Below are positions 3,305 through 19,440 of a stretch of DNA of 64,000 nt, one piece after another. The notes below the pieces were generated by a model that saw nothing but the letters and a program-made list of their open reading frames with translations, searched no databases and was not told where the DNA came from. This DNA is from an uncultured virus (IMG/VR IMGVR_UViG_3300042891_000356). Lineage: Duplodnaviria > Heunggongvirae > Uroviricota > Caudoviricetes. Both the position numbers and the translations under genes were made by a program. How positions within the stretch are numbered: position 1 is the stretch's first letter; every line of letters starts with the position of its first letter. Location: the IMG/VR virus record IMGVR_UViG_3300042891_000356. One strand, 5' to 3'.

Positions 3305-5860
3305 CTAATAGCTGTTCTGTAAAATTCCCGATGTATACTTGTTATTAGTATACATAGCTTCATTCATACGTTTCATTTCTTCAACCATTCTAATAGTATT
3401 TTCTGCCAGGCTCTTAATGTGCTCGTTACTTGCAGAATCTTGCACTACGCTAGCACCGCTACTATTACGCTGCTCTTCTGGATTTTGCAGGTCAGCTACC
3501 CAGCCCTTCATCATTTCAGCCATCCCTTGTGCACCGCCTTGTGCGGTTATGCTGCTGTTTGTTGCCCACGTTGCAGGTTTAAAATCAGATCCTCCTAGAG
3601 TTCCTTCGTAGAGCATGCTTGCAAGATCTTCACTTTCTTCAGCTTTAACTCTTTTAAGCCCTGACATCATGCTTTCTAAAGATCGTATAGCACCTTGCAA
3701 GACTTTAACTGTGTCAGTGTTTGTTGTGTTTGCGGCTGTTATAAACTTTTCAGTTGTTGCGGCACTTATTACACTTGCAGGACCGCTGACAAGCTCAGGC
3801 CCTGCTTCACCTACTATTCCAGTAGCGCCGGCTCGTATTGAACCACCGTTAGCATGTTTACTAATACCTTTCATGTAGTTTTCTATCATGCTAGGTGCTC
3901 GTTCAGGTTGAGCCATGCCCATAGCACGTAGATTTTCCATGCGTTTCTTTTCATCAGCAATCTTAGCTAATTCTGCATTGTATCCTTCGATATCACCGTC
4001 TTCTTTAAGTTGCTGTAGTTCTTTATTTCGTGCTTGTTCTTTATTCCATGCGGCTAAATCTTGTTGATATCGCATTTCGCCAAAGCCGCCGTACTCTTTA
4101 GTATATTGATTTTTTAATATTCTAGTGTTCTTCTCATCAGAAGCTTTTTGTTCTTTAGTTTTACCATAACCATACTCATCCAATGTATCTTGAACACTAC
4201 GCAGCATCTTTTTAGAAAGATTAGCAAAATCCATGATTGCCGGAGTTAATATGTTTTGTAGAGATTTTTTTAACTCCATTGCAGCAGTTTCTGCGTCAAC
4301 TACACCTTTAGTTAATCCATCGGTAGTTTTTTCTTGGTCTTTAGCCGCTTTTTCCCCGGCTTTAATTGCTTCAGGAGTAGCTAGTTTAATTTCATTAATT
4401 GATTGCATAAACGATTTAGCTAAGTCACTTGCGTGACCAGGTATTCCGGCAGCATCTACCAACCCAATGCTAGTTTGATCTAAGAATTCTTTTTGCATTC
4501 TCCCGTTTTCACGAGCATTAATATTACGCATTTTTGCATCATCTAATGTACCTTGTTGATAGTTTTGATATGCTTCTGATACACTATCACGCAGGCCACC
4601 ACTTAAAGCTGCTGCAGATGCACCTTGAGAATTAATCACACTGCCAAAGTTAACCATATCCATAAAATTCTTACGTTGTAACGAATTCATGTTTGAGAAA
4701 GCTCGCATAATTGCGGCTTGTTCTTCTGGAGATTTTTTTGCTAATTTTTGTTGAAACGCAAGTTGATTTGCTTCATCTTGCACTTGAGCCATTTTTTTCT
4801 TAGCATCTTCGCCGGTTATAGCAGCAATGATACGTAAATTTTCTGCATATTTTTGTGTTTGTTCTGCTACTTGCTGATTACTTGCTCTCAGTGGTCCTGA
4901 TGTGCTACCACGCATAGATTTCATTGTTTCTGCAACTAATTCAGCTTGTTCCTCAAACCCGTAACCAAGATTAAGTAAATTTTTCTTCATTGATGCACCA
5001 CCAGCGGTTAGTGCACCGCCAATTCGTTTAGCACCTTCGTTTATACCCAATCCACTAGCACCTATGTTTGCGCTTTGATTCTTTAATACATTAGCAAATA
5101 AATCAACTGTCATGCCTGCTGCACCAGCAGCATTACGCATACCGGTCATACCATCAGCAAACATAGCACCACTAGCACTCATTGAATTAAATGCTTTGTA
5201 TGTTTTTTCTACTTCTACCTGTGCTACGTCAACAGCAAATTTTGCTACTTTGGCAGCAGTTTCCGCAGTTGCGTTTGCAACCATACCCAACCCAGTGGTA
5301 ACCATACCAATTGCTGCAACAAATGGGTTTTTAGCGTCCATCATTTTGCTACCGAATTTCTCAGCGGCGCCACCTGCAGTTTTTATTCCTGCAGCCGCAA
5401 CATCAATTCCTATTTTAAATAAATCGCCTGATAATTGTGCCGCTGATTGATTTGCCTGCAGACCTTTAACAAATGCACCAGCACCCTGAACCATAGATAC
5501 TGTTGATTTGGTTACTCCTTCAGCTACATCTTCCGTAACTCCACGCATCATTGCAGAATGCGCTAAAGCATCACGCTCAGCTAACAATGATTGTTTTTTG
5601 CTTGTTTTTGCAGCATCATCGGTGGTATCACCTAATTCAGACAGTGCATCATTTAATTCGTCTAATACTTTTTTCTGTTGGGCGTAACCAGCTTGACCTT
5701 TCTTAATTTCTTTATTAAGATCTTCAATTTGCTTTTTAAATTCTTTTGTACCTTTGCCGGTAACTTTAATGAAATCACTTAACCCATCAGTGGTCGTACC
5801 AAATCTCTCGGCCATTGCCTGAATTTCTTGTTGCATCGTTGTAAAATCAATATCAGCCAT
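3305..5860 (-). CDS. Tape-measure-like / baseplate hub protein
   Basis: 851 aa, Ala/Gly/Gln/Lys-rich and helical, with no Cys. The C-terminal ANGG...GIVGEAGPELV motif is common in tape measure proteins. Confidence 0.7.
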   Translation of the reverse strand: MADIDFTTMQQEIQAMAERFGTTTDGLSDFIKVTGKGTKEFKKQIEDLNKEIKKGQAGYAQQKKVLDELNDALSELGDTTDDAAKTSKKQSLLAERDALAHSAMMRGVTEDVAEGVTKSTVSMVQGAGAFVKGLQANQSAAQLSGDLFKIGIDVAAAGIKTAGGAAEKFGSKMMDAKNPFVAAIGMVTTGLGMVANATAETAAKVAKFAVDVAQVEVEKTYKAFNSMSASGAMFADGMTGMRNAAGAAGMTVDLFANVLKNQSANIGASGLGINEGAKRIGGALTAGGASMKKNLLNLGYGFEEQAELVAETMKSMRGSTSGPLRASNQQVAEQTQKYAENLRIIAAITGEDAKKKMAQVQDEANQLAFQQKLAKKSPEEQAAIMRAFSNMNSLQRKNFMDMVNFGSVINSQGASAAALSGGLRDSVSEAYQNYQQGTLDDAKMRNINARENGRMQKEFLDQTSIGLVDAAGIPGHASDLAKSFMQSINEIKLATPEAIKAGEKAAKDQEKTTDGLTKGVVDAETAAMELKKSLQNILTPAIMDFANLSKKMLRSVQDTLDEYGYGKTKEQKASDEKNTRILKNQYTKEYGGFGEMRYQQDLAAWNKEQARNKELQQLKEDGDIEGYNAELAKIADEKKRMENLRAMGMAQPERAPSMIENYMKGISKHANGGSIRAGATGIVGEAGPELVSGPASVISAATTEKFITAANTTNTDTVKVLQGAIRSLESMMSGLKRVKAEESEDLASMLYEGTLGGSDFKPATWATNSSITAQGGAQGMAEMMKGWVADLQNPEEQRNSSGASVVQDSASNEHIKSLAENTIRMVEEMKRMNEAMYTNNKYTSGILQNSY

Positions 5861-5887
5861 AACTTTTTTTACCTATGTTTTTACCGC

Positions 5888-5923
5888 TATAAATATATAA
5901 TATGGTACTATCAATTATTTATA
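5888..5923. promoter_or_regulatory. Pair of opposed late promoters (TATAAATA on + at 5888-5895, on - at 5916-5923)
   Basis: Two exact TATAAATA octamers on opposite strands in the 74 bp gap between divergent genes. Confidence 0.75.
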
Positions 5924-5934
5924 GGAAATAAATC

Positions 5935-6798
5935 ATGGTGAATCAAACTCAGTCATTTGCACCAACTAATCCGTTGGCTAAACACTTTCGGCAACCTGCA
6001 TTATATTTAAAATTGCCTAGTGGCGGAGCACATTGGCCTGAAGGCTCAATTGACCTACCGTTAAACAATGAAATTGCAGTGTTACCTATGAGTACAAAAG
6101 ATGAAATTACACTTAAAACTCCAGATGCATTGCTTAACGGGCAAGGTGTAGTTAATGTAATTGAAAGCTGTTGTCCAAATATTAAGGATGCATGGATGAT
6201 GCCTAGCATCGATGTTGATTCAGCTATTATTGCTATACGTATTGCCAGCTACGGTAATCAAATGGATTTTGGTGCTACCTGTCCAAAATGTAGTGAGACT
6301 AGCGACTATGCTATCGATTTAAGTGTTATATTAAGCAATATTACTGCACCTGTATATACACAAAAGGTTAAAGTTGATGAATTAAAAATTAAACTTAAAC
6401 CACAGGCATATTTCAATGTTAATAAATCTAATATGATTGCGTTCGAAGAACAGCAAATAATGAAAACGTTAGGTCAATTAAACGATAACCCAGAAGAACT
6501 TAAAAAAGTTTTTGATCAACAATTATCTAAAATTATTGATTTAAATGTATCACTATTAACAGGTAGTACTGATTATATTGAAATGCCCGACGGTAGTATT
6601 GTATCCGACGAAGCATTTATCAATGAATTCTACAGTAATTGTGATTCTAATGTAATTAAAACAATTAAGGCTACATTAACAGAATTAGGTAAACAAGGCG
6701 GTATTAAGCCAATCGATGTTAATTGTCATAGCTGTAACGCAGAATTTAGTGTAACGGTTGAATTTGATTTTGCAAGTTTTTTCGCAGTAGGCTCTTAA
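5935..6798 (+). CDS. gp26: Baseplate hub assembly / tail assembly chaperone (T4 gp26-like)
   Basis: LPSGG, MSTKDEITLKTPDALLNG, DVDSAIIAIRIASYG, two CxxC pairs (CPKC, CHSC) and a C-terminal ..SFF match the gp26-like pattern. Confidence 0.75.
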   Translation: MVNQTQSFAPTNPLAKHFRQPALYLKLPSGGAHWPEGSIDLPLNNEIAVLPMSTKDEITLKTPDALLNGQGVVNVIESCCPNIKDAWMMPSIDVDSAIIAIRIASYGNQMDFGATCPKCSETSDYAIDLSVILSNITAPVYTQKVKVDELKIKLKPQAYFNVNKSNMIAFEEQQIMKTLGQLNDNPEELKKVFDQQLSKIIDLNVSLLTGSTDYIEMPDGSIVSDEAFINEFYSNCDSNVIKTIKATLTELGKQGGIKPIDVNCHSCNAEFSVTVEFDFASFFAVGS

Positions 6799-7013
6799 CA
6801 CTAGACAACGATGCAATCGTAGAACTGTTAGACGGCTACGAAAAAGAGATAAGGGCCTATAAAGATGATGCGTTGCGAATTTCCTGGTATATGCGAGGGG
6901 GAATAAGTTACGAAGATGCAATGATGTTAAGTCAACAAGAAAGAGAACTAATATCAAAAATAATTAAAGAAAATATGGAAACAACCAAAAAAAGTGGGAT
7001 GCCATTTTTCTAA
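6777..7013 (+). CDS. gp51-like C-terminal extension of the gp26-like protein, probably reached by -1 frameshift
   Basis: The -1 frame is open from 6768 to TAA 7011-7013 and reads FFRSRLLTLDNDAIVELLDGYEKEIRAYKDDALRISWYMRGGISYEDAMMLSQQERELISKIIKENMETTKKSGMPFF. There is no ATG until 6891. A terminator follows. Confidence 0.7.
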   Translation, partial: FFRSRLLTLDNDAIVELLDGYEKEIRAYKDDALRISWYMRGGISYEDAMMLSQQERELISKIIKENMETTKKSGMPFF

Positions 7014-7022
7014 TAGAATACT

Positions 7023-7046
7023 AAAGCACATTTATTGTGCTTTTTT
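7023..7046 (+). terminator. Rho-independent terminator, possibly bidirectional
   Basis: AAAGCACA-TTTAT-TGTGCTTT followed by further Ts, about 10 nt after the stop at 7013. Confidence 0.75.
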
Positions 7047-7099
7047 ATTGACTATAATATACACCTGTCAAAGTCATTATAACAGCAAAAACTTTAATA

Positions 7100-7600
7100 T
7101 ACTTAAAAGATGTCTAACGACATCTGCATTATCGCTATCGCTCAATGCTTTTTCTTCTAATCTAATTAATTTAAATTACTTTAATACTTACTGTATTGCT
7201 TTTGACTTTAGAACTGCTTCATCCAGATTATAGTCATACTTCACCCATTACAGGCAAAGTAAAACAGAGCGACTTCATCCGAGTGCTTCATCATACTAAC
7301 TAAAAGAGATTATATTCATTTACACGGAAGCGGTCGCCCTGTACTCCCTACTCTTGCTTCTTGCGACGGTTGATGCATAATCCGTAGTTAGCCAAACTAT
7401 GTCATCATATGGGTTGTATCTTTTTCACAGTGCCCAAATCATTCGGTTTTTACACCTAATTTTTATATTGTTGATTCGCTTTTTATAGCACAATACACGG
7501 TCGCCATTCAGTGTGTAGTCTAGTCTACACGTTCCACGTGCGGCCATTACGCGAGCACGATCTCCTCTGAATACAGAACTTAATCTGCAATAGGGCTGTT
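7100..7600 (-). ncRNA. Putative large structured non-coding RNA, family unassigned, boundaries approximate
   Basis: Gap without a credible ORF containing many helices that pair better on the minus strand (G-U wobbles), long-range pairings and an 8-bp loop-to-distal pseudoknot. Details are in the findings. Confidence 0.7.
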
Positions 7601-7701
7601 AAAACATTTACTACTTTACTACGGAGTTGGAATTTGTTTCTATGAGAGTGACTTGGTGTCTGAGAGCTGTGTGTTTATTGTAATACGTTTAGTGTCGTTG
7701 G

Positions 7702-8142
7702 TCAACTGGTTTTATTAATTTTTAAATCTTTTACGGAACCCTTGCCTAATTTAATTTGTATAATACCATTGTAGTTATCTTCCCTCAACAGTACTTCTTC
7801 CATAAATTGATAATGCGCTTCCATGTAGTTAGTTTCACCACGACTTAGACATAGATGTATAATTTCGCGTTTAAACTGTTCCTTGCCTAAAGCTAGGATA
7901 TCTGCTACTAGTCGACTCGAAGAACCCCAATAGTCTTTCCAATCAGTTTCAATTGTTTCTAGACGTTTGTTCTTCTTGCCTTTTAACGGTGGTCTTTTTT
8001 TGATAGTTTTAAAATACTTACGACCCACATAATCGTAGCCGTTAGTAAGATTGGTTATTCTATAAATGAAACCGTAGTATTCACCAATATCCCCCGAATC
8101 GAAAGGTGTACCATTATAGATCCAGGGGAAGTCGTATGTCAT
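7702..8142 (-). CDS. Stand-alone GIY-YIG family endonuclease
   Basis: GFIYRITN...YVGRK, YWGSS, FKREII...E and YNG match GIY-YIG motifs. It is 146 aa with no obvious C-terminal DNA-binding module. Confidence 0.85.
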   Translation of the reverse strand: MTYDFPWIYNGTPFDSGDIGEYYGFIYRITNLTNGYDYVGRKYFKTIKKRPPLKGKKNKRLETIETDWKDYWGSSSRLVADILALGKEQFKREIIHLCLSRGETNYMEAHYQFMEEVLLREDNYNGIIQIKLGKGSVKDLKINKTS

Positions 8143-8149
8143 ACGTTAT

Positions 8150-8335
8150 TTATTTTGCAGCCGCTGCATTTTTCTTCTCTTGGATTTCTGCACGACGAGC
8201 TTTAGTTAACTTACCTAAATCACCTAATGCACCACGAGCACGTGCCGCTGCGGCCTTAACACCCTTAACTTCAAATTTTTCTGATTCTGCTACGTATAGT
8301 TCTACTGCTGCTAAAATATCTTCATGAATTGACAT
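8150..8335 (-). CDS. Small basic histone H1-like (Hc1-type) protein
   Basis: 61 aa with KFEVKGVKAAAARARGALGDLGKL, resembling the Hc1 family core. AAGGAG RBS and TAAATA lie upstream. Confidence 0.65.
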   Translation of the reverse strand: MSIHEDILAAVELYVAESEKFEVKGVKAAAARARGALGDLGKLTKARRAEIQEKKNAAAAK

Positions 8336-8391
8336 GTTTACTTCTCCTTGTTATTATGTGTATTTAACCACCTTGTAGTGGGTGGTAAAAT

Positions 8392-9276
8392 TTAATTAAA
8401 TTCTATTTCTCTCTGCCATTGATTTGTAAAACTTGTACCTAATTTATTTTTAGTACAGGTATTAACGCAAATATTATTGGGATTAAGCGATAACCACGAC
8501 TGCTGTATATTAGTAAAATCGTTGATAGTATGTGAAGTAGTTCCAAGCCAACAACACGGATGCATGATACCTTTAGCTGATATATATAAACTTTGATCTT
8601 TAAGTGCAGCACACTCTATAGTACCACTAGTCACAGTAGGATTTGCCCACCCGGACGGAGATTGTAGGAATGATATTGGGGTACTGTTAAATCTTTTGCT
8701 GACCTTGGCGCGAAACCATTTAAATCCAAGCTCTCTTGCTAATTGCTGTGCTTGGTCAACCTGATGTTCGTTGTGTTTAAACACTAACATCTCCCAATGA
8801 GCAAGCCCACCTGCTTGTATAAATGCCTGTGCATTTGCTATTATTTTATTCCATTCTGTATTGATTCGATAGATATGATTAGTGTCAGCTAACCCATCGA
8901 TACTCCACACTACATATTCTTGCGGAGCAGTACTAGGTTGATGCATAACTGTGGCTAATTCTCTCCACCAGTTAGTAGATCTTAGCCCACCATTTGTATT
9001 CATTCCTAATATTATTTTAGGATTTACACTTCTAAAATATTTAAAAATTTCTAATGTGTGTTTGCCAGCTGCTGGATCACCGTAGTCGCCGCACATAAAC
9101 ATTTTATCAAGATTGCGAATAACATCTTCGCTAACTAATTTTTTAATTTGATCTACAGTAAGATGATGCAAAACATTCTTATTGAACGTTGTATCTGTTT
9201 CTCTCGCACACTGTGGACAGGCCGCATTGCATGCGTCGGTTGGTTCGATATGCAATACTTTAATATTAGATAACAT
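8392..9276 (-). CDS. Radical SAM protein with C-terminal SPASM/twitch-like cysteines
   Basis: CNAACPQC (CxxxCxxC), MCGDYGDP, NTNG, SIDG and C-terminal C..PCC..CxxxC. The start is placed at the ATG overlapping the gp46 end; the track start is 9306. Confidence 0.88.
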   Translation of the reverse strand: MLSNIKVLHIEPTDACNAACPQCARETDTTFNKNVLHHLTVDQIKKLVSEDVIRNLDKMFMCGDYGDPAAGKHTLEIFKYFRSVNPKIILGMNTNGGLRSTNWWRELATVMHQPSTAPQEYVVWSIDGLADTNHIYRINTEWNKIIANAQAFIQAGGLAHWEMLVFKHNEHQVDQAQQLARELGFKWFRAKVSKRFNSTPISFLQSPSGWANPTVTSGTIECAALKDQSLYISAKGIMHPCCWLGTTSHTINDFTNIQQSWLSLNPNNICVNTCTKNKLGTSFTNQWQREIEFN

Positions 9277-11035
9277 CAACATCTGTGCTATATGATGTAA
9301 ACCCATTCTCTTTGGTTACAGTCATAATATTGTTAACTCGACCTGCAAGTTCATCTTTATGCGAAACAAGCCAAATACTTTTCTCATGCTCACGTGACAT
9401 CTTTTTAAGTATGCTCAATGAACTTTCAACTCCACTACTATCCATACCACTATCAATAAGTTCATCAATGAACAATAAGTTAATAGGATTGTATAAACTT
9501 TCCCAAACATCACGGAATGCCCAAGATAAACTTAATATCAAGCGATTACGTTCACCACGTGACAAGTTATCAAAGTCTAACTCACGTCCTAACTCTGTAA
9601 TCTCAACGCTTAAATCATTTAAGAACGTTACTGTGTGTGGCAATCCAATACGATCCAAGTATTGACTTAGACGTGCGTTTAAATGCAACAAGTTTTGATC
9701 AATGATACGTTTACGGATAAAGCTATCTTTGTTGGTTAATAGTTTTAACAAGAAGTCTTGATGTTCTTTTAACTTAACTAGCTCGTTCATAGTAGTATAA
9801 TCAGTTTCTACTAAGGCAGTCTGTGTCATTTCTTCAATTTGTTCAGCATATGGATCAACTTCTGTAGCCTTAGCGGCTAACTGTGTTTCTAAACTGGTAA
9901 TAGAACCCTTGTGATGAAACGCATCTGCTTCTTTATCGTAATATACTCGAGGTTGAGCACCTAGTGGGCCAATTTCTGCCTTAGCACCAGTAAGTGCAAG
10001 CAACTGTGATTCATCTGACAAATATTGATTCGTAGCAGTTTCAAGTGATGCACGTTTAGCCGCTAACACTTCTTCATGCTTGCTATCATGAAAATGCTGT
10101 CCGCAAGCATAACAAGTATGTGCTTCAAGATCAGAAATTTCTTTAGTAACTTTGTCTATGGTTTTTTGTTCACGGGCAATATCTGCTTCACTACGTAATA
10201 TAGCTTTGGATAAATCATCTAGGTCTTTGCGCTGTTGATTGTAAGCAGTAAGCGCAGTATGTGCCGCTAGCTCTTGTTCGATATCAATTTTACGTAGTTC
10301 TGTAAGGGCATTTTGTAGTTTTACTGTGTCATCTGCATGCTTAGTAGTCCACATAGTTTGCCGACGTTTTAAGCTGTCGATTTGCTCTTGAATACGGCCA
10401 TTTGCGTCGTTTATTGCTTTAATATTGAACTCTTCTTGCTGTATTGCATCCTTGGTAGCACGACCCAACTCTTTGAGTTTTTCTGCCTTTTCACTTAATA
10501 CAGTGATGCCAAGTAACTGTTCGATTATTTCACGTTGGTCATTAGCTTTAAGACTAAGGAACGGTTCGGTATAGGTATTAAGCGCAACAATGTGCTTAAA
10601 CATATTATGCGACATACTTAACAAGCGTTCAATTTCAGCCTGCGTTTCTCTACTGTCGCCTTGACTCTCGTCTGTAATTTCTTTTTCTTCGTCGCCTACA
10701 TAAAACTTCATTATGTTAGGCTTACGTCCACGTTCAATCTTATAATCTTGTCCGTTATGTTCAAACTCAACAGTAACCAACATGTTCTTACCATTGGTTT
10801 TATTAATTAAGTTATCACGTTTAATATTAGTTAATGCTTGTCCAAACAGACTGTAGCTTAAGGCATTGATGATAGTTGTTTTACCAGTGCCGTTACGTGC
10901 GCCACTGTCATCACCACCTAAGTCAACGTTGACTCCTAATACTAACGTGAGATCGTTACGGTCAAACTCAACCGCTTGCGTAGCATTACCTACGCTCATA
11001 AAGTTTTTAACTGTGAGATTTTTTATTTTAAACAT
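9266..11035 (-). CDS. gp46: Recombination endonuclease ATPase subunit (gp46 / SbcC / Rad50-like)
   Basis: Walker A NGTGKTT, coiled coil with CYAC zinc hook, signature LSRGE, Walker B LLFIDELID and H-loop VSHK. Confidence 0.96.
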   Translation of the reverse strand: MFKIKNLTVKNFMSVGNATQAVEFDRNDLTLVLGVNVDLGGDDSGARNGTGKTTIINALSYSLFGQALTNIKRDNLINKTNGKNMLVTVEFEHNGQDYKIERGRKPNIMKFYVGDEEKEITDESQGDSRETQAEIERLLSMSHNMFKHIVALNTYTEPFLSLKANDQREIIEQLLGITVLSEKAEKLKELGRATKDAIQQEEFNIKAINDANGRIQEQIDSLKRRQTMWTTKHADDTVKLQNALTELRKIDIEQELAAHTALTAYNQQRKDLDDLSKAILRSEADIAREQKTIDKVTKEISDLEAHTCYACGQHFHDSKHEEVLAAKRASLETATNQYLSDESQLLALTGAKAEIGPLGAQPRVYYDKEADAFHHKGSITSLETQLAAKATEVDPYAEQIEEMTQTALVETDYTTMNELVKLKEHQDFLLKLLTNKDSFIRKRIIDQNLLHLNARLSQYLDRIGLPHTVTFLNDLSVEITELGRELDFDNLSRGERNRLILSLSWAFRDVWESLYNPINLLFIDELIDSGMDSSGVESSLSILKKMSREHEKSIWLVSHKDELAGRVNNIMTVTKENGFTSYSTDVDVI

Positions 11036-12149: not shown

Positions 12150-13005
12150 TTAATTTGATCCACGATGCTTTGGATGTTACTGTATTAACATGATCTAATT
12201 TACTACTAATATCGCTAATACTTGGACACATTTGGCAAATACTTTCTGGTGTATTAAATCCTTTAATAAAGTTATCTAATTCAATATCAGAGCAGTTGAG
12301 ATCGATTCCTTTATAATCTAAATATGGATCCCATTCAGATTGAGTTTGATGCCAATCTGCTAATGTTTTAGCTAATAATGCAATAGAACTGCACTTGTAA
12401 ATTTTACCGTTATACAGCAACGGGCATGTTTTCTGACAACATATTGCAAATGCATCTTCTGGTTTAGAATTGTGCGGCAGCATATTAGAATAATTACCTT
12501 TAAACGTTTTATAAAACGTCTTAGGGAAATTAATTTGAAAGCGCACATTATTTTTAGCACGCCATCGCTGTATACCAAATTCTGTTACCGGCTCCCAATC
12601 TGCATAACTGAACACTTTATTAAGTGCTTCTTGAATATAAAATTGATCAGGTTGATGTACAGTTATTTTAAAAACACAGTTACCTACATCAAATATAGTA
12701 TCTAATATACTAGTTTTTTGAGACAAAATAGTCCCGTTTGTAGTAAATCTTAATTGACTAGCTGGCATTAGTTCTCTACATCCAACTAACCATTGTTCTG
12801 CTTCTTTGTTTAACAACGGTTCTCCGCCAATCAATCCAAAATCGGGTATATTTACACGTTTAAGCCAAGACGAAATCCATTCTTTAGCACTATCCCACTG
12901 TACTGATCCACTAACATTATAATCACTATAATTAGTGCAACCTTCACAGCTTAGATTACAAGATTGTGTAATCATAGTTTCTAAGAACGGTAATTCTCGT
13001 TTCAT
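12136..13005 (-). CDS. Radical SAM protein
   Basis: CNLSCEGC, IGGEPLL, TTNG and C-terminal CC..C..C..CQMC. Confidence 0.9.
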   Translation of the reverse strand: MKRELPFLETMITQSCNLSCEGCTNYSDYNVSGSVQWDSAKEWISSWLKRVNIPDFGLIGGEPLLNKEAEQWLVGCRELMPASQLRFTTNGTILSQKTSILDTIFDVGNCVFKITVHQPDQFYIQEALNKVFSYADWEPVTEFGIQRWRAKNNVRFQINFPKTFYKTFKGNYSNMLPHNSKPEDAFAICCQKTCPLLYNGKIYKCSSIALLAKTLADWHQTQSEWDPYLDYKGIDLNCSDIELDNFIKGFNTPESICQMCPSISDISSKLDHVNTVTSKASWIKLNVIN

Positions 13006-14018
13006 AGATTCCTGTAGATGTCTAATAACAATGCCGGATTGTAATGATCACTGTTAATAGCTGTTAGTTGACTTGTTACGATGGTATCGATACTTTCAAA
13101 TTGAATATTGCCCAACATAATATCTGTGCCAATATCAGTATGCTTAACAGGAATTAAAGTAAGCTCGCGTAAATTGTAAGTGCCTACAAACGTTTCTTTA
13201 ATAAACGTTGCTTCTTCGTATGAAATATCTACATCGATGTTTACACGACAGTGCATGCCTTTTTGCAGTAATGCTTCTGGGCTTTGTAGTATGCCACTTA
13301 AGGTGTAGACACGATACTTAGGCTGATCTGGCCAAGCATGAAACGTTGGCTCATTGCCCCATTCTAATATCATCATGCCACGTTCATCGTCACCTGCATC
13401 TGCATAGTTGTGCGGAAACGCATTGCCTACATAGGTAATGTTCTTACCTGTTTGACGTTTATGGAAGTGTCCACTGTATACATGATCAATATGCCCAAAG
13501 TCCTCGCGTCTAATCTCACCGTGCTCTGGCATCTGTACCATGGCATTCATATAGTAGCCCGGCAACTCAAAGTGCCCAAACATATACTTGGCATTGATCT
13601 TAGGAATCTTTTTATGATCGTCGCCTACTAACCAGGGCACAATACTAACATCGCCCTCTTGATAGAAGTCGTTGATAATTTCAATGTTAGGAATATGTCT
13701 AGCCCATTCAGCTGACTGTATATCACGCTTGTCACGATAATATAAATCATGATTGCCCGGAATGAATATAACACGCTCAAAGGCTCGGCCCAACAACTCT
13801 AAGGCTGTTAGGCTGTAGTTTAACGTAATGATATTAATTGCCGCGCGGTTATTGTGCCAATCACCTAACATAAAGCAAACATCGCAACCTTCTTCTTTAG
13901 CTTTGCTAATAAACCACTTAACAAAGTTTAAACAATCATCGTTGTGTGTTTGACTATTTGACTTTAAGCCAAAATGTATGTCAGTCAGAATTGCTGCTTT
14001 TTTAAATAAATTTGCCAT
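13002..14018 (-). CDS. gp47: Recombination endonuclease nuclease subunit (gp47 / SbcD / Mre11-like)
   Basis: Metallophosphoesterase motifs TDIHFG, LGDW, GNHD, GHFE and SGHFH. Confidence 0.96.
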   Translation of the reverse strand: MANLFKKAAILTDIHFGLKSNSQTHNDDCLNFVKWFISKAKEEGCDVCFMLGDWHNNRAAINIITLNYSLTALELLGRAFERVIFIPGNHDLYYRDKRDIQSAEWARHIPNIEIINDFYQEGDVSIVPWLVGDDHKKIPKINAKYMFGHFELPGYYMNAMVQMPEHGEIRREDFGHIDHVYSGHFHKRQTGKNITYVGNAFPHNYADAGDDERGMMILEWGNEPTFHAWPDQPKYRVYTLSGILQSPEALLQKGMHCRVNIDVDISYEEATFIKETFVGTYNLRELTLIPVKHTDIGTDIMLGNIQFESIDTIVTSQLTAINSDHYNPALLLDIYRNL

Positions 14019-14024
14019 GTAATT

Positions 14025-14054
14025 AGTATATACTACTTAACCTTATGAAGTCTA
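14025..14054 (-). promoter_or_regulatory. Sigma70-type promoter for gp47
   Basis: TAGACT-18 nt-TATACT ending 6 nt upstream of the ATG. Confidence 0.45.
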
Positions 14055-14070
14055 TTGGAATGTAACCAAA

Positions 14071-14967
14071 TTACTCGTCTGCACCATGTCCACCACCACC
14101 GCCCCATGAACCGCCACCTTGATTTTGACGAGTATAGCTTGGTGCGTAGTTGTTCATCTCTAAGATATCATCACGGATGTTTTGATTACGCTTTTCAATG
14201 TTTAGAACACGTGTAAAGCTGTTAGTAATTGCCGCAGTATAGTAGGCAAATGGATTATCTGATTTAGCTTCGTCAAACTGTAGACCAATTTGACTTAACT
14301 GTAGTAATGCCTGACTGCGCATTTCATCATTATAGGTATAACCACGCCAGTTACTGCGAGTAGCATAGCGTTCACATAGCTTAACAAACATATGAGCTAA
14401 TTTAGCAGTCATCTGTCCGTGATCCTTGCTAAACGCACCAGTTTCTAAATCGCCTTTCCAATGACTCTTGCCTACAATAACCGGAGTTAATTCTTCAGTC
14501 ACTGAATAATGAAAGAATGGAGGAAAATTTACCTTAACATACTTAGTAGCACCTTTGACCTTAACTGCTGGTTCATCGTATTCAGTTTCAAACAAATCTT
14601 CATCGTATGCTTCTTGAGCCTTAGCATCAGACTTTTTCTGTTTAACTTCGTCAATAGGTATATGTTCCCAAGTCATGACACGGAATACAAGGTCAGTAAC
14701 TGGAATATTTTCTACAGGAATTGCAAACTCATCTAATTTACGTTTGTTACCTAAAGCTAGCTCGGCTTCTTGTGCTTCTTTAGCTAATCTAGTTGCACGT
14801 GTTGCCCTTGCTTCTGCTACGGTTTTTTTGTTTATTGCACTAACATTTGATACAATAGCATCGTATACGGTTACTTCTTTATTAATGAAGCTACAATATG
14901 CTAATTTACTTTTTGCTATTTCTTTTAATATGTCTTTGTTGTTGAGATAATTAATTTTACGAGCCAC
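14071..14967 (-). CDS. gp55: Late-transcription sigma factor (T4 gp55-like)
   Basis: NYLNNK, NWRGYTYNDEM, FDEAKSDNPFAYYT and F..VLNIEK. It lies upstream of gp47 and gp46 as in T4-like phages. GTG start. Confidence 0.9.
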   Translation of the reverse strand: MARKINYLNNKDILKEIAKSKLAYCSFINKEVTVYDAIVSNVSAINKKTVAEARATRATRLAKEAQEAELALGNKRKLDEFAIPVENIPVTDLVFRVMTWEHIPIDEVKQKKSDAKAQEAYDEDLFETEYDEPAVKVKGATKYVKVNFPPFFHYSVTEELTPVIVGKSHWKGDLETGAFSKDHGQMTAKLAHMFVKLCERYATRSNWRGYTYNDEMRSQALLQLSQIGLQFDEAKSDNPFAYYTAAITNSFTRVLNIEKRNQNIRDDILEMNNYAPSYTRQNQGGGSWGGGGGHGADE

Positions 14968-14988
14968 AGTTTTTGGTTCCTTTTAATT

Positions 14989-15018
14989 AGTATAACATAA
15001 TAGCATTGCACTATACAA
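14989..15018 (-). promoter_or_regulatory. Sigma70-type promoter for gp55
   Basis: TTGTAT-18 nt-TATACT with an extended -10 (TGtTATACT). Confidence 0.55.
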
Positions 15019-15091
15019 CCTATTTATGTAGATAATCTTTAACTGCTACTATTTCTCCGGCAATAAATACACTATAAAAGAGGTTTTTACT

Positions 15092-16327
15092 ATGGCTCTA
15101 AATCCTACAGATGCACCAGTATACGACAATAGAGGCGGATACGTACCAGGTCAGGTTGATTCTACCAACGGTGGATACGACCCTTATGCACCACAAAACT
15201 ACACTGGTGCTTATGCTCCTAGTTTTGCCGGTGGATATAATGGCGAACAAGTATTAAGCAGTGGCGGCGGATACAATCCTAGTAACCCAAGTGCATATTT
15301 AACCAGCTCAGATTCAATTGGCGGTCAAGCCGCTATAACAGAAAATTATAATCAAGGTGCTGACTTCCGTGGTGGCTATTACGGAGATCAAGTTGAAGCT
15401 AGTGGCGGCGGCTACGATCCGTCAAAAGATGTTGCTTCATACGAATCAGAGGATGCTAGACGTAGTCTATTGCCAACTAATGCCGCAGAATCTGGTACAA
15501 AAAATGAACCATCAATTGCAATACAAGATGCAAATGCTAACAGCGGCGCACCGTCAGATGATGATTGGCGTGTGCGTATAAGTTTAGCAGATAAAGCAAC
15601 TATATTTTACAAAGCATCGGGAGTAAATCCAAATAATCTTATGGCTCCTTTAAGAGAAACCAATGGAGTCGTATTTCCATATACACCGAGTATACAAGTA
15701 TCACATGTAGCTAATTACAGTCCAACTACTCCAACACATAGTAACTATTCACAACAATTTTATACTAACAGTGAGGTGAGTGATATTACTATTAGTGGCG
15801 AATTTACTGTACAAGGCATAGACGAAGGAAAATACTTATTAGCCGCTATCTACTTTTTTAGATCGGCTACTAAAATGTTTTTTGGTGGTGGAGCAAACGC
15901 AGGCAATCCGCCGCCTATTGTATTCTTAGATGGCTACGGCAGTCATTATTTCCCCCATGTGCCGTGCGTGATAACTAACTTTACACATGTTATGCCAAAC
16001 GAAGTTGATTATATACAGATTCCAGTTGAAACTACTACATTGACTGAATCAATAGTCGCCCCATCCGACTCAATGAGTGTTGTAAATACACTGGATAATC
16101 AAGGAATGAAATATCAGCCACAATGGGGTAGCAAAAAAGCCACTGCTGAAACAAAAATGTCATCATATAAGACAGTAACATCATCAACAAGAGTTCCAGC
16201 ATCGAGCACAATATCGATTACATTGAAACCAATGTACAGTCGCAAAAATCTACATGATAATTTTGATCTTGATGCATTTTCAGCAGGTAGATTAATACAA
16301 ACTGCTACCACCGGAGGATTCCTATAA
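15092..16327 (+). CDS. Baseplate / tail-tube initiator-like protein with N-terminal GGY repeats
   Basis: FPYTPSI, ITISGEFT, GNPPPIVFLDGYG and VPCVITNF suggest a tube-fold (gp48/gp54-like) protein. It is the first gene of the baseplate module, with TAAATA upstream. Confidence 0.65.
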   Translation: MALNPTDAPVYDNRGGYVPGQVDSTNGGYDPYAPQNYTGAYAPSFAGGYNGEQVLSSGGGYNPSNPSAYLTSSDSIGGQAAITENYNQGADFRGGYYGDQVEASGGGYDPSKDVASYESEDARRSLLPTNAAESGTKNEPSIAIQDANANSGAPSDDDWRVRISLADKATIFYKASGVNPNNLMAPLRETNGVVFPYTPSIQVSHVANYSPTTPTHSNYSQQFYTNSEVSDITISGEFTVQGIDEGKYLLAAIYFFRSATKMFFGGGANAGNPPPIVFLDGYGSHYFPHVPCVITNFTHVMPNEVDYIQIPVETTTLTESIVAPSDSMSVVNTLDNQGMKYQPQWGSKKATAETKMSSYKTVTSSTRVPASSTISITLKPMYSRKNLHDNFDLDAFSAGRLIQTATTGGFL

Positions 16328-16632
16328 TGTCAGCAGTTACCTATAGTCAAACAAGTCCATATAGCAAAACAGATGCATACGGATTCTTTTTAGATGTTGC
16401 AACATTTAGAGATATACCGGCATTAGCCGCTGATGTGGTATACAGAATTGCCGCAACATATAAACATCGTCCAGATTTATTGGCATATGACTTATATGGA
16501 GACAGTGCGTTATGGTGGGTGTTTGCCATGCGTAATCCTAACACTATACAAGACCCAGTGTTTGATTTCTTACCAGGCACAACAATATTCATTCCTAAAA
16601 AAGAAACAATCATTGCGGCGCTAGGATTATAG
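16327..16632 (+). CDS. gp53: Baseplate wedge LysM-like subunit (gp53-like)
   Basis: RPDLLAYDLYGDSALWWVF...N motif. Confidence 0.8.
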   Translation: MSAVTYSQTSPYSKTDAYGFFLDVATFRDIPALAADVVYRIAATYKHRPDLLAYDLYGDSALWWVFAMRNPNTIQDPVFDFLPGTTIFIPKKETIIAALGL

Positions 16633-16635
16633 TAA

Positions 16636-19440
16636 ATGGCACTTACAAAAGCTGAAATAGCTCAGCAAGCTCAACTTAAATTAGTAAATGATTTGTCTGC
16701 TGGCACTATAACGCAAGCACAATTTCAAGCCGGAATCGCAAAAATAAATGCACAATTGTTAAAAGAACAAGCTCCGACACAAGATACAGTAACAAATAAA
16801 TTAGCATCTACACCACCTGCGCCTGCAGGATCAGCAGCGCAGATTAATCAGCAATACACACAATATCAAGTCAAACTAGCAAATGATCTAAAAAGCGGGA
16901 AGATAACGCAGACACAATTTCAAAACGAATTTGAAAAATTACTAGCACAGCAAAATGCAGCACTAGCGAGAGTGCCTAAGGTTTCAAAAACTGAAGATGC
17001 AAGAATAGCAAACAACCCACCAGCGGTAGTAGATGCTAACACATCAACAGCATCAGAAGTTACAAGCAGTGAGCCAATAAAGCCAGGCACAGATTCTAAT
17101 AAAAAGAAACCACCATTGCCTAATCCGTTGCTTGCTTATCCGTTGTATACATACGGGTTAAGTTTAGCGTTATTAACAGTTGACGAATATAATAAAGTAA
17201 TAGATGATACTAAAAACTATCAAGCCAATCGTGTTATTATAGCCAGTGCTGGTAGATACAACAATGATGAAGGTGTATCGATGTTTAAACGTGCACCATT
17301 CTTTGCTGAAGATTTTTATTTTGAAAATCTTGATATGACTACAGTAATTGGCTTAAATGATCATTCACGTGCAACTAATGCAATAACTTTTAAATTTACT
17401 ATTATTGAGCCGTACGGGGTTACTTTATTAAATCGAATAATTGATCTCAGCGCATCGATAGGTTCAAAGAATTATATAGCACAACCGTATCTATTACAAA
17501 TTGATTTCTTTGGTACAAACGACGCCGGCGAAATAGTTGGCATTATACCCGATCAAACAAAACGCATGCCTATTCGTATTTTAAAAATGGATATAAAAGC
17601 CAGCCCCAAGGGCGCAGAATATTCAATTGAAGCTTCTCCTTATAGTCATTCTGCGTGGGACGTATCATCAAGTGGTACACCTGCAAACTTTGAAATAACA
17701 GCAGGCTCAATTGAAAGTTTTTTTAAAAGTAATGAAGAAGAAAATCTCGCCGCACAATTAAAAGCAAACAGAGAATTAAAATCGTCAACTATTATACGTG
17801 CCGCACCCACTGCCGGAGCCGATGGTAGAGGTGTAACAACTATCGCAGGCCGTACGGGCAATCTAATAGGCCCAGAAGGTCAGTTACTTTATGCTCCATC
17901 ATTGTTAATGAGTAAAGAAACAACTAATATTGTTCTAGGCAAAGATCCTGTATATAAGGTAAAATCATACGGTGGCGCCATAAACGCATATTATGCAGAC
18001 TTAGCCGCTACTGGAAAGACATCAGTTGCTGATAGATATTATTTTAAATTTCACGATGATATCATCAAAGAGGGCGGGTTCAATATCAGCGCAGAAACAT
18101 TAAGTACAGCACAAACTCCGATGGCCAGTCAAGAAAACGGCATGACTATAAGGGGCAGTGCAAATACCAGTGTAGATCATAATGCTCGAGTTTTTGGAAT
18201 TAATGCAGGTACAAGTATAGATCAGGTTATTTCCTTTGCTATGCGACATACTCATTATTTACAAGGGCAGGTAAAACCGGCATCAGCATTTGCTGCCGAC
18301 GGTAAAGATTATAAAGCATATCTTGAAAAGTTACAAGGTGAGCCTTTAAAATGGTTTAAAATTATTCCGGTGGTAAAATTAGGTGAATATAACATTAAAG
18401 AAGAAAGATGGGCACGCGACATTACCTATCACGTAGTACCATATACTGTATATAACACAAAAATACCTAGTGCGCCACAGGGTGTATGGACGAATCCTTG
18501 TAAGGTACACAATTATTGGTACACCGGTAAAAATAATGATGTAATTGATTTTAATGTTGAATTTAATGCATTATATTATACCGGACTAACTGCATATAAA
18601 GAAAATTTGTCTAAAGTTCAAAATTTATTAATAGAAAAAACTATTGATGCTCCACTGTCAGCAGAAGCACAACAAGCAAATGCAGTAGCGCCGGCTGGAC
18701 AAAAACCAATAATCGGTGACACACAAAAACATGCAACTGGTGGTGCAATAACAGTTGAAGCAATAACACTTGCTGATGTTGAATCATCATTATACACTAC
18801 CGCTGGTGGTGATATGCTGCAGGCAAAATTAAAAATAATCGGTGACCCGCAATATATTAAGCAAGATGATATTTTTTATCCTCCGGTTCTAACTGCTCTG
18901 TCGGATCAAGTTGATAATACTGGTATAGATCCTAGATTAATTGCCAACGGCAGCCTACACATGGATCAAGGAGAAATATATGTTCAAGTAACAGTTAAGA
19001 GTCCTGTTGATATAGACGAAACTACAGGATTAATGAATTTTGATCCTAAGTACAAAACAAGTTTATTTTCTGGTATGTATCGAGTTTTAAGAGTAGAAAA
19101 TCATTTTAGTGGCGGAAAATTTGAACAAGTTATAGACATGGTACGGTTACCACGCCAACAATCACTCGAACCATCGGCAGCACCAAAAATTACCGATAAT
19201 GCACGCGAAGCAACTGCTGCAACCCCGTTATCAGTTAATGTAGATGCTGCTACTATTGGTCCAGATTTCACAGTGAAAAGAACTAGCGACGACAAAGCAC
19301 CGGATAGCGCACCTGTTGAAGATACTACTCCACCATTACAAACTGCTGAAGAAAAAGCATTGGCTAAAGTAGATGCAACTGCACCAGAAACTGCAATAAC
19401 TACACAAACGGAACCAGTTGCTGTTCCGCCACCAGTATAA
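16636..19440 (+). CDS. Baseplate hub protein (gp27 / late control D-like)
   Basis: LKIIGDP and FSGMYRVLRVENHFSGGKFEQ at the C-terminus, located between the gp53-like and gp5-like genes. Confidence 0.65.
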   Translation: MALTKAEIAQQAQLKLVNDLSAGTITQAQFQAGIAKINAQLLKEQAPTQDTVTNKLASTPPAPAGSAAQINQQYTQYQVKLANDLKSGKITQTQFQNEFEKLLAQQNAALARVPKVSKTEDARIANNPPAVVDANTSTASEVTSSEPIKPGTDSNKKKPPLPNPLLAYPLYTYGLSLALLTVDEYNKVIDDTKNYQANRVIIASAGRYNNDEGVSMFKRAPFFAEDFYFENLDMTTVIGLNDHSRATNAITFKFTIIEPYGVTLLNRIIDLSASIGSKNYIAQPYLLQIDFFGTNDAGEIVGIIPDQTKRMPIRILKMDIKASPKGAEYSIEASPYSHSAWDVSSSGTPANFEITAGSIESFFKSNEEENLAAQLKANRELKSSTIIRAAPTAGADGRGVTTIAGRTGNLIGPEGQLLYAPSLLMSKETTNIVLGKDPVYKVKSYGGAINAYYADLAATGKTSVADRYYFKFHDDIIKEGGFNISAETLSTAQTPMASQENGMTIRGSANTSVDHNARVFGINAGTSIDQVISFAMRHTHYLQGQVKPASAFAADGKDYKAYLEKLQGEPLKWFKIIPVVKLGEYNIKEERWARDITYHVVPYTVYNTKIPSAPQGVWTNPCKVHNYWYTGKNNDVIDFNVEFNALYYTGLTAYKENLSKVQNLLIEKTIDAPLSAEAQQANAVAPAGQKPIIGDTQKHATGGAITVEAITLADVESSLYTTAGGDMLQAKLKIIGDPQYIKQDDIFYPPVLTALSDQVDNTGIDPRLIANGSLHMDQGEIYVQVTVKSPVDIDETTGLMNFDPKYKTSLFSGMYRVLRVENHFSGGKFEQVIDMVRLPRQQSLEPSAAPKITDNAREATAATPLSVNVDAATIGPDFTVKRTSDDKAPDSAPVEDTTPPLQTAEEKALAKVDATAPETAITTQTEPVAVPPPV

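Follow-up and report, generated by a model that had tools for sequence, protein, structure and literature searches.

A strand-specific, modular and pseudoknotted RNA of freshwater jumbo phages that partly overlaps the Polynucleobacter-1 motif

The window analysed here is a stretch of 64,000 nucleotides (nt) from an uncultured virus of the Caudoviricetes (IMG/VR record IMGVR_UViG_3300042891_000356), and the question that it raises is what fills its gap at 6958-7701, between a baseplate-hub gene with a small conserved open reading frame (ORF) on one side and a minus-strand GIY-YIG gene on the other. An earlier note, made from the sequence alone, had proposed a large, ornate, pseudoknotted RNA on the minus strand of 7100-7600, in the broad class of ROOL and GOLLD and possibly new. 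We find that the gap almost certainly holds a real, strand-specific, modular and pseudoknotted RNA family, which is abundant in freshwater jumbo-phage contigs, occurs in some Burkholderiales islands and partly overlaps the Rfam family RF01718 (Polynucleobacter-1). As to its action, we tentatively favour an RNA that works in trans, as a folded particle that shows a short sequence in two copies to a symmetric or duplicated partner and is adapted to its lineage by an exchangeable 5' domain.

In this picture, the minus strand from about 7670 (or at least 7631) to 7104 would be a self-contained structured non-coding RNA of some 530-570 nt. Its modules are, in order, an exchangeable 5' domain (here a five-helix fold) and a conserved core with a pseudoknot and a three-way junction, followed by a long hairpin that has one of two identical heptamers on each side, a linker rich in A, a 3' module with a putative GNRA cap and a terminal hairpin.

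Strand, fold and covariation of the core

The minus strand of 7100-7600 folds at -134.6 kcal/mol with z = -3.44, and none of 100 shuffled sequences does as well. For the plus strand z is -1.35, and 10 of 100 shuffles fold as well, so that folding better than shuffled sequence is a property of the minus strand and not of the plus strand. All sequences quoted in the earlier note are found on the minus strand at the positions that it gave. Its choice of strand is upheld too, since many G-U pairs are conserved (e.g. UG in 57/57 and 55/57 rows), from which it follows that the RNA strand is the minus strand.

Other contents of the gap were considered. The longest ORF has only 40 codons (7425-7547), is not conserved and lies mostly inside a lineage-specific insertion. 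ARAGORN finds no transfer RNA (tRNA) or transfer-messenger RNA (tmRNA) in the window, and there is no Rfam tmRNA match. A group I intron with a GIY-YIG endonuclease was rejected: there is no match to Intron_gpI and no downstream coding sequence on the strand, and the GIY-YIG gene stands alone.

For the core, 58 sequences were aligned over 7445-7100 with L-INS-i, and the structure scored is that of RNAalifold together with the pseudoknot of the earlier note. Its elements are as follows:

7408-7456, minus strand: hairpins 7456-7454/7447-7445 and 7438-7433/7413-7408 (with 7429-7428/7416-7415); helices 1-2, with 5/6 and 1/2 pairs compensated, found also by RNAalifold on 29 sequences
7371-7407, minus strand: hairpin 7407-7405/7373-7371 plus 7400-7393/7384-7377, whose 8-nt loop 7392-7385 is the 5' strand of the pseudoknot
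7305-7354, minus strand: three-way junction (helices 6-10), AGAG 7354-7351/CUCU 7308-7305 enclosing two hairpins
within 7305-7354, minus strand: near-invariant hairpin 7348-7343/7331-7326 with an AC(A/C) bulge, GG/CC 7339-7338/7333-7332 and a 4-nt loop
within 7305-7354, minus strand: hairpin 7324-7321/7314-7311
7295-7302, minus strand: 3' strand of the pseudoknot, UAGUUAGU

Standard pairs occupy 88.2% of 4,150 cells, compared to 74.6% in column shuffles (0/500 as high) and to 39-45% when the partners are slid by 1-3 columns. Both-side changes occur in 54 of the 76 pairs, and the covariation score is 0.400 versus at most 0.101 when slid.

The stem 7400-7393/7384-7377 and its extension 7407-7405/7373-7371, both predicted in the earlier note, have both-side changes in all 8 + 3 pairs. 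The predicted pairing of the loop with a distant strand (7392-7385 with 7302-7295) holds as well: double changes support 6 of its 8 pairs, and 91.7% of the cells form pairs. The combinations seen in the different clades are GCUAACUA/UAGUUAGU, UCUAUUC/GAAUAGA, UUAGCG/CGCUAA, CUGAUAU/AUAUCAG and CUGACUA/UAGUCAG, and mutual information recovers these pairs blindly, with peaks at 7388/7299, 7387/7300, 7386/7301 and 7385/7302. RNAalifold offered the alternative of 7359-7355 with 7301-7298, which was dropped in favour of the pseudoknot because three sequences have A in place of G at 7300, a change that only the latter compensates.

The local hairpins that had been proposed are also found to covary. 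In the 5' domain, 7559-7555/7541-7537 and 7530-7525/7518-7513 have 5/5 and 5/6 pairs compensated; further downstream, 7348-7343/7331-7326 is confirmed, 7265-7252/7246-7233 has 10/14 pairs compensated and 7125-7119/7114-7108 has 6/7. Two proposed long-range helices did not survive the comparison. The helix GAGGAGAU/AUCUCUUU could form in 22-29 of 29 sequences, yet changes at base 7563, which can be A, U, C or G, are without compensation throughout; this helix probably fails, and the CUCU at 7308-7305, which it had claimed as a partner, pairs with AGAG 7354-7351 through true double changes. The helix GCGAC/GUCGC clearly fails, pairing in only 2-4 of 29 relatives, and the GGC at 7505-7503 pairs instead with GCC 7596-7594.

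The core also contains the invariant columns GGUAC.GG...ACCGCC. Resemblances of short words to 16S ribosomal RNA (GGCUAACUACG, GGGAGUAC) and to T-box RNAs (GGUACCG) are supported by no Rfam match and are treated as chance.

A pseudoknot and a three-way junction in an invariant core, together with a GNRA-capped module on the 3' side, are typical of catalytic RNAs, and the element could accordingly be a ribozyme, self-processing or acting on other RNA, with the heptamers as two identical processing sites; a structured primer RNA of a replication origin belongs to the same line of thought. No ribozyme family of Rfam 15 is matched, though, and no cleavage products are evident in the RNA-library contigs described below, which, however, cannot show molecule ends. 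We consider this explanation very improbable.

Family size and exchangeable 5' domains

The search for homologues was built on 40 aligned hub proteins and on 80 loci drawn from 454 confirmed viral stretches. Four close viral loci retrieved by the hub protein have gaps 92-94% identical to that of the window. With a hidden Markov model (HMM) of the gap, 70 of 84 viral loci yield a homologue that directly follows the hub operon and has the strand of the window's copy, and nhmmer after one iteration finds them in 78 of 84 hub-anchored viral loci, with a family envelope that starts at about 7631. In five of the six loci missed, the available sequence stops at or shortly after the hub gene; the sixth was matched in the first-round search.

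A pattern of two invariant core blocks, which is independent of the neighbouring genes, matched at least 120 viral loci, and about 1,600 stretches of the viral collection are estimated to carry it. Since nhmmer confirmed 120 of 120 matched loci as true members (more than 150 of the 194 core positions being covered in 119 of them), the RNA family can be taken to be very large. The covariance model of the core, called R1 (194 positions, 47 pairs), detects a single copy in the window with 169.4 bits (E = 6e-41), and the pseudoknot and the two heptamers are also present there.

The source phage of the window is an uncultured jumbo T4-like phage, whose portal is ca 50% identical to those of Agrobacterium phage Atu_ph07, Sinorhizobium phage Phosso and the Pseudomonas PA5oct group. 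Freshwater Burkholderiales, for instance Polynucleobacter, would be the natural host candidates for its clade. These cultured relatives (hub 31-34% identical) have no nhmmer match and none of the hallmark motifs, and R1 matches neither their loci nor their whole records (best E = 0.33); the small convergent ORF is kept in them, the GIY-YIG gene is not. A blastn search of 6900-7750 against 50,697 phage records gave no match. The equivalent places in L085 (Atu_ph07, 4058-4940), L086 (PA5oct, 4528-5870) and L087 (Phosso, 5223-6238) hold only tiny hypothetical ORFs or no annotation, and these stretches might contain other non-coding elements. A 19-nt degenerate motif sought in genome contigs (4/64 parts) was discarded, as only the motif itself was covered in the 123 loci checked; its matches are chance, mostly in GC-rich genomes.

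The 5' side of the RNA differs between lineages. In the window it consists of:

7597-7670, minus strand: 5' leader with a small GAC-ACCAA-GUC hairpin (about 7659-7649) and the word CAUAGAAACAAAUU, identified by eye in the alignment
7503-7596, minus strand: window-type 5' domain, with closing helix 7596-7594/7505-7503, hairpins 7588-7584/7577-7573, 7559-7555/7541-7537 and 7530-7525/7518-7513, and helix 7572-7567/7511-7506
7460-7500, minus strand: lineage-specific 40-nt insertion, restricted to the window and the three relatives closest to it, which holds most of the 40-codon ORF at 7425-7547

The window-type domain (7600-7500, 27 sequences) has 99.7% of its cells paired and both-side changes in 16 of 25 pairs, and its covariation of 0.508 compares with at most 0.059 when slid (0/500 shuffles as high). 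Words similar to CAUAGAAACAAAUU precede the RNA in other clades, again by eye. A conserved single-stranded GAGGNGAU in the domain (7567-7560, minus strand), which reads GAGGUGAU in several relatives, resembles a strong Shine-Dalgarno sequence; no conserved start codon or ORF follows it.

The whole window has no match in Rfam 15 at gathering scores, and a permissive search of 6700-7900 (E up to 10) returns two meaningless low matches, neither of them to RF01718. The window copy thus matches no Rfam family. The suggestion that the RNA may be new nevertheless has to be revised: it is not wholly new, because many homologues carry RF01718 as their 5' domain. The RF01718 model has 141 positions and a gathering score of 37 bits. 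Strong matches (91-110 bits) occur in the loci of 3 of 8 relatives, immediately upstream of the core that they share with the window; in the independent pattern set the gathering score is passed by 11 of 20 loci, the scores over both sets being 55-121 bits. An HMM of this type of domain finds it in 98 of the 200 loci that have the core, at a constant 40-100 nt upstream of where the core begins. All 98 are matched by the core model and HMM built with the window's sequence, and no locus has the domain alone. Sequence of 250 nt or more 5' of the core is available for 164 loci, which divide into 43 with the window-type domain, 82 with the RF01718 type, 39 with neither and 0 with both. By this split, the 141-nt motif of the literature is only one among three or more 5' domains that can stand in for each other on an RNA of about 450-570 nt. 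A hairpin termed H4, with a ..AAUG(G)CC.. loop, looks common to the window-type and RF01718 domains in a by-eye reading of the alignment.

The table of PMC2864571 (Weinberg et al. 2010) lists Polynucleobacter-1 as a probable RNA with a probable cis-regulatory role, with 16 representatives known from Burkholderiales and from fresh water or estuaries; one chromosome record is in the seed alignment. It shares with the window the RNA family and the freshwater and Burkholderiales setting. The differences are that its model comprises the 141-nt 5' domain only, the remaining ca 350 nt (pseudoknotted core, twin heptamers, 3' module) being outside Rfam, that the window's own 5' domain fails it even at E up to 10, and that most copies found here lie in jumbo-phage contigs with no downstream gene, in contrast to the cis-regulatory listing. 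In the literature searched, Polynucleobacter-1 is named only in PMC2864571, and no description of the core, its pseudoknot, the twinned heptamers or their occurrence in phages was found there. The window RNA is thus a variant and a major extension of a known orphan motif, and not categorically new.

Bacterial copies exist as well. RF01718 is above cut-off in 3 of 151 sampled Burkholderiales genomes, all of 1.8-1.9 megabases, and was not found in the rest searched. R1 aligns end to end just downstream of it in two bacterial loci, weakly (21.8 and 16.6 bits), and the architecture is the same, the heptamers being twinned again with other letters (GGCGAAA, AGCGAAA or AGCGAUG). When a fourth, sub-cut-off match to RF01718 is counted, a tyrosine integrase lies downstream in 2 of 4 loci and a divergent DUF6641/phrog_31551 gene beside the RNA in 3 of 4. 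One of the islands (L335, G053:C4:62000-81000) carries a tyrosine integrase at 8730-9368 and, about 1.5 kilobases (kb) from the RNA, a Zorya type I locus at 12262-18972 (ZorD of 1,331 amino acids (aa), ZorC and ZorB; PADLOC). The downstream proteins of two bacterial loci are unrelated to each other, and the flanking small proteins have no PADLOC match. Given such different neighbours, the family is tied to mobile elements and not to one gene neighbourhood.

With these results, an Rfam motif that had been an orphan for 16 years turns out to be part of a far larger RNA, and Polynucleobacter-1 moves from "bacterial 5' UTR" (untranslated region) to "jumbo-phage and island RNA". The covariation is strong enough for a near-complete secondary structure without experiment. 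The family is abundant and present in lake metatranscriptome libraries, and its RNA can also serve to recognise a large clade of freshwater jumbo phages that is so far uncultured.

Twin heptamers, genomic setting and mode of action

We now turn to the 3' half of the RNA, which contains the following elements (bp, base pairs):

7280-7274, minus strand: twin heptamer copy 1, GGAUGAA
7265-7233, minus strand: 14-bp hairpin between the heptamers (helix 12, 10/14 pairs with both-side changes)
7224-7218, minus strand: twin heptamer copy 2, GGAUGAA, 56 nt downstream of copy 1
7149-7217, minus strand: A-rich linker of variable length and sequence
7126-7148, minus strand: 3' module, stem 7148-7145/7129-7126 enclosing GAGCG-NN-AGCGA(A) (helices 13-14, 4/4 and 2/2 pairs compensated)
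7104-7125, minus strand: terminal hairpin AGAUGUC-GUUA-GACAUCU followed by UUUU (helix 15, 6/7 pairs compensated)

The two heptamer copies never differ from one another, be it in the unique sequences of the first set (61/61) or in those of an independent set (113/113; 1/114 was not located by the search expression), and the heptamer takes at least 13 forms across members. The copies covary in parallel and not as complements: 7280/7224 is GG in 35 and AA in 26 sequences, 7276/7220 is GG in 44 and AA in 17, and 7274/7218 is AA in 36 and UU in 25. Within the RNA, no column holds a complement of the heptamer in more than 29 of 61 sequences. CsrA-type GGA sites were rejected as an explanation because the GGA is often AGA, GAA, AAA or GGC. 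That the heptamers change together and stay identical is an unusual evolutionary signature, which points to a specific, searchable partner.

On our own reading of the sequence, the 3' module may contain G-A pairs in tandem and a stem of 2 bp with a GNNA tetraloop on top; the module is visible also in a bacterial copy. The terminal hairpin, which is followed by only UU in many relatives, is together with its UUUU a probable 3' end or terminator.

The reading that we tentatively prefer is that of a compact particle, a scaffold or a decoy, that would act in trans and would not regulate a neighbouring gene. The constant core would make the fold, the identical heptamers would present the same sequence twice to a duplicated or dimeric partner or to a second copy of the RNA, and the swappable 5' domain would adapt the particle to phage or host lineages. 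Its carriers are uncultured freshwater jumbo T4-like phages, with the RNA between the baseplate-hub operon and the GIY-YIG gene, and, for more diverged members, integrase-bearing islands of small Burkholderiales genomes. The RNA is independent of its neighbours in that it persists without the GIY-YIG gene, and in bacterial islands with integrase, DUF6641 and once Zorya.

To weigh this reading, the surroundings of the RNA have to be considered:

5935-6798, plus strand: baseplate-hub gene (Pfam T4_baseplate)
6873-7013, plus strand: conserved small ORF behind the hub gene (46 codons as listed), convergent with the RNA
7023-7043, strand unassigned: hairpin resembling a terminator, T-rich on the plus strand, that separates the RNA from the convergent small gene
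7702-8142, minus strand: conserved GIY-YIG protein of 146 aa, immediately upstream of the RNA on the same strand (Pfam SegE_GIY-YIG, E = 7e-36)
7705-7677, minus strand: sigma-70-like promoter TTGACC-17-TACAAT, with 10/12 consensus matches, its first hexamer overlapping the GIY-YIG stop codon

The gene order in the phages is portal, an 851-aa protein, hub, small ORF, RNA (convergent), GIY-YIG, often an Hc1-like and a radical-SAM protein, and then gp46. No gene follows the RNA on its strand in the phage loci, and the stop codon of the small convergent ORF touches the terminal hairpin in many relatives. The GIY-YIG protein is 34-100% identical across phage loci and is the neighbour of the RNA in most of them; as a conserved, stand-alone neighbour it was rejected as a sporadic homing endonuclease. 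The distance from the GIY-YIG stop codon to the core start is 148-294 nt; it is 148-190 nt in most members, where the stop codon falls at the very border of the 5' domain. In 5 of 43 unique loci (L016, L017, L018, L032 and L071), inserts of 950-1,900 nt separate the two, which shows the RNA to be separable from its usual upstream neighbour, and in a few phage loci without an adjacent GIY-YIG gene the RNA is kept.

Some side observations concern the same neighbourhood. The inserts in these five loci are possibly mobile genes, and the relative L004 has, at 5099-5924, an insertion of ca 825 nt between the small convergent ORF and the RNA that the window does not have. Residues 85-129 of the GIY-YIG protein match the phage late-transcription coactivator weakly (Pfam Trans_coact, E = 0.0035; phrog_254, E = 0.0037), and its best PHROG is phrog_447, whose label of "NAD synthetase" is apparently mistaken. 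The 61-aa protein at 8150-8335 (minus strand) matches Pfam Hc1 (chlamydial histone H1-like, E = 6e-9), and its gene adjoins GIY-YIG in many relatives. Farther away in the window, a single ORF of 4,272 codons (25446-38264, plus strand), flanked by other very long ORFs (22032-25415, 1,127 aa), presumably encodes a giant virion or injected protein of the jumbo phage.

As regards transcription, the promoter sequence would place the start near 7670. It is kept in the two closest relatives and is not seen in most other members, where the GIY-YIG stop codon abuts the RNA. The RNA region is covered by contigs of four metatranscriptome runs, which come from three studies and from relatives ca 90-97% alike: 1,550 nt over 7017-8398, 1,583 nt over 6772-8282, 573 nt over 7279-7808 and 407 nt over 7295-7708. 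Their per-contig depths over the RNA are 159.5, 94.7, 12.9 and 39.7, and those of short hub-gene contigs are 2-6, figures that give no ranking of expression. Such contigs carry neither strand, ends nor local depth, and the parts that they leave uncovered, e.g. most of the hub gene, prove nothing. The Hc1-like gene is covered by the same contigs as the RNA. What they establish is presence in RNA libraries, compatible with co-transcription from upstream, and no more. The public runs that match the stretch are labelled lake water or freshwater metagenomes; the best DNA runs may include the source sample and hence give no independent support.

It follows from the continuity of these contigs through the GIY-YIG and Hc1-like genes that the RNA may be the 3' part of that messenger RNA (mRNA). 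In the strongest form of this explanation, it would be a cis-acting 3' UTR of the Hc1-like/GIY-YIG operon, which ends transcription before the convergent late hub operon and shields the mRNA from 3' exonucleases. The short distance from the GIY-YIG stop codon to the core in most members fits such a role, and so does the terminal hairpin at the very end, abutting the convergent gene. We nevertheless hold it to be unlikely, as a conserved pseudoknotted structure of ca 500 nt with an invariant core far exceeds the needs of a terminator or stabiliser. Moreover, the RNA stays where the GIY-YIG gene is absent or 950-1,900 nt away, bacterial islands carry it without that operon, and in the window a promoter lies between the GIY-YIG gene and the RNA.

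Another explanation is a cis-regulatory leader or sensor, in which a ligand- or factor-dependent fold would decide on read-through past the terminal hairpin, in bacteria into the integrase-side genes downstream and in phages antisense to the hub operon. This is what the 2010 table of PMC2864571 suggests in marking Polynucleobacter-1 as likely cis-regulatory, and a same-strand gene does follow in the bacterial loci (the integrase in L333). The terminal hairpin with its U-run is terminator-like in the window, and, on our own reading, its 3' strand can pair with the heptamers in the window lineage (21/61 sequences). This pairing is not kept in other clades, however, nothing lies downstream on the same strand in the phages, the downstream proteins differ between two bacterial loci, and the size and the modular 5' domains are unlike known riboswitch leaders. 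A regulatory leader is in our judgement decidedly improbable.

It is important to note that several points also weigh against the trans-acting particle. The mechanism is inferred, and its partner, be it protein or RNA, is postulated. Complements of the heptamer near the neighbouring genes occur at 0.87 sites per locus, about the chance level, with no preferred place; the window has 5 matches versus ca 1 expected, two of which are the twins themselves, and this was judged not to be enrichment. A helix drawn between the heptamer regions, 7282-7277/7228-7223, acquires C-A mismatches and, lacking any double-sided change, does not explain the heptamer pattern. The RNA-library contigs show neither strand nor ends, allow for DNA carry-over and run on through the GIY-YIG and Hc1-like genes, and in most close relatives the RNA begins right at the GIY-YIG stop codon. 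Finally, a gene on the same strand follows the RNA in the bacterial loci, which fits the older cis-regulatory suggestion for RF01718.

A bolder proposal, which we regard as unlikely on present evidence, is that of a modular RNA machine of ca 0.5 kb common to the mobile elements of freshwater Burkholderiales, i.e. to jumbo lytic phages and to integrase-bearing islands beside defence systems, with the heptamers as a programmable recognition element read twice by a symmetric partner. If this were true, the RNA would be a guide- or decoy-like specificity module, for example a phage counter-defence RNA that mimics an island-encoded RNA or one that directs a dimeric enzyme. It would then represent a new functional class instead of an inert ornate RNA, and Polynucleobacter-1 would be merely one of its swappable heads.

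Comparison with known systems

Large, highly structured RNAs of bacteria and phages are, to our knowledge, rare. The earlier classes (RNase P, group I and II introns, tmRNA, OLE, ROOL, GOLLD and omega RNAs) each taught new biochemistry. The present RNA resembles ROOL, GOLLD and OLE (presumably RF03087, RF01998 and RF01071, respectively) in its large size, many helices, pseudoknots and phage association. It differs from them in its genomic setting, the window being without tRNA genes, and in matching none of their models, neither in the window at gathering score, nor in 6700-7900 at E up to 10, nor in the loci of eight relatives at E up to 1. Of the original proposal, the large pseudoknotted phage RNA on the minus strand is thus borne out by covariation, while the link to ROOL and GOLLD is not.

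A functional likeness could exist all the same. GOLLD, ROOL and OLE are reported to form RNA-only homo-oligomeric complexes (10.1101/2024.12.08.627333), and the present RNA, likewise phage-borne, large and ornate, might self-assemble in a similar manner, with the pseudoknot and the heptamers as protomer contacts. All 7-8 loop bases of the hairpin 7400-7377 pair with the distal strand, and covariation does not distinguish between pairing within and between molecules; the twin identical elements also suggest symmetry. As neither sequence nor model similarity connects it to ROOL, GOLLD or OLE, we find such an oligomer rather improbable.

The prohead RNA of phi29 offers a second comparison. Like it, the window RNA is a phage-encoded structured RNA near structural and portal genes, with loops that pair with a distant strand. 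In phi29 these loop-to-strand pairs form between molecules. T4-type packaging, on the other hand, is not known to need an RNA. The window RNA is also about three times longer, a sequence relationship would not be expected, and its bacterial-island copies lack packaging genes.

The third comparison is with ToxI, the RNA antitoxin of type III toxin-antitoxin systems, and with pseudo-ToxI, its phage-borne mimic. The window RNA has only two 7-nt repeats and not tandem 36-nt units, and it lacks a conserved downstream toxin gene. A type III reading was rejected on account of the two bacterial loci with unrelated downstream proteins and of the flanking proteins without a PADLOC match. What the two RNAs have in common is their occurrence both in bacterial defence-island neighbourhoods and in phages that carry the RNA alone, and their use of repeated short units.

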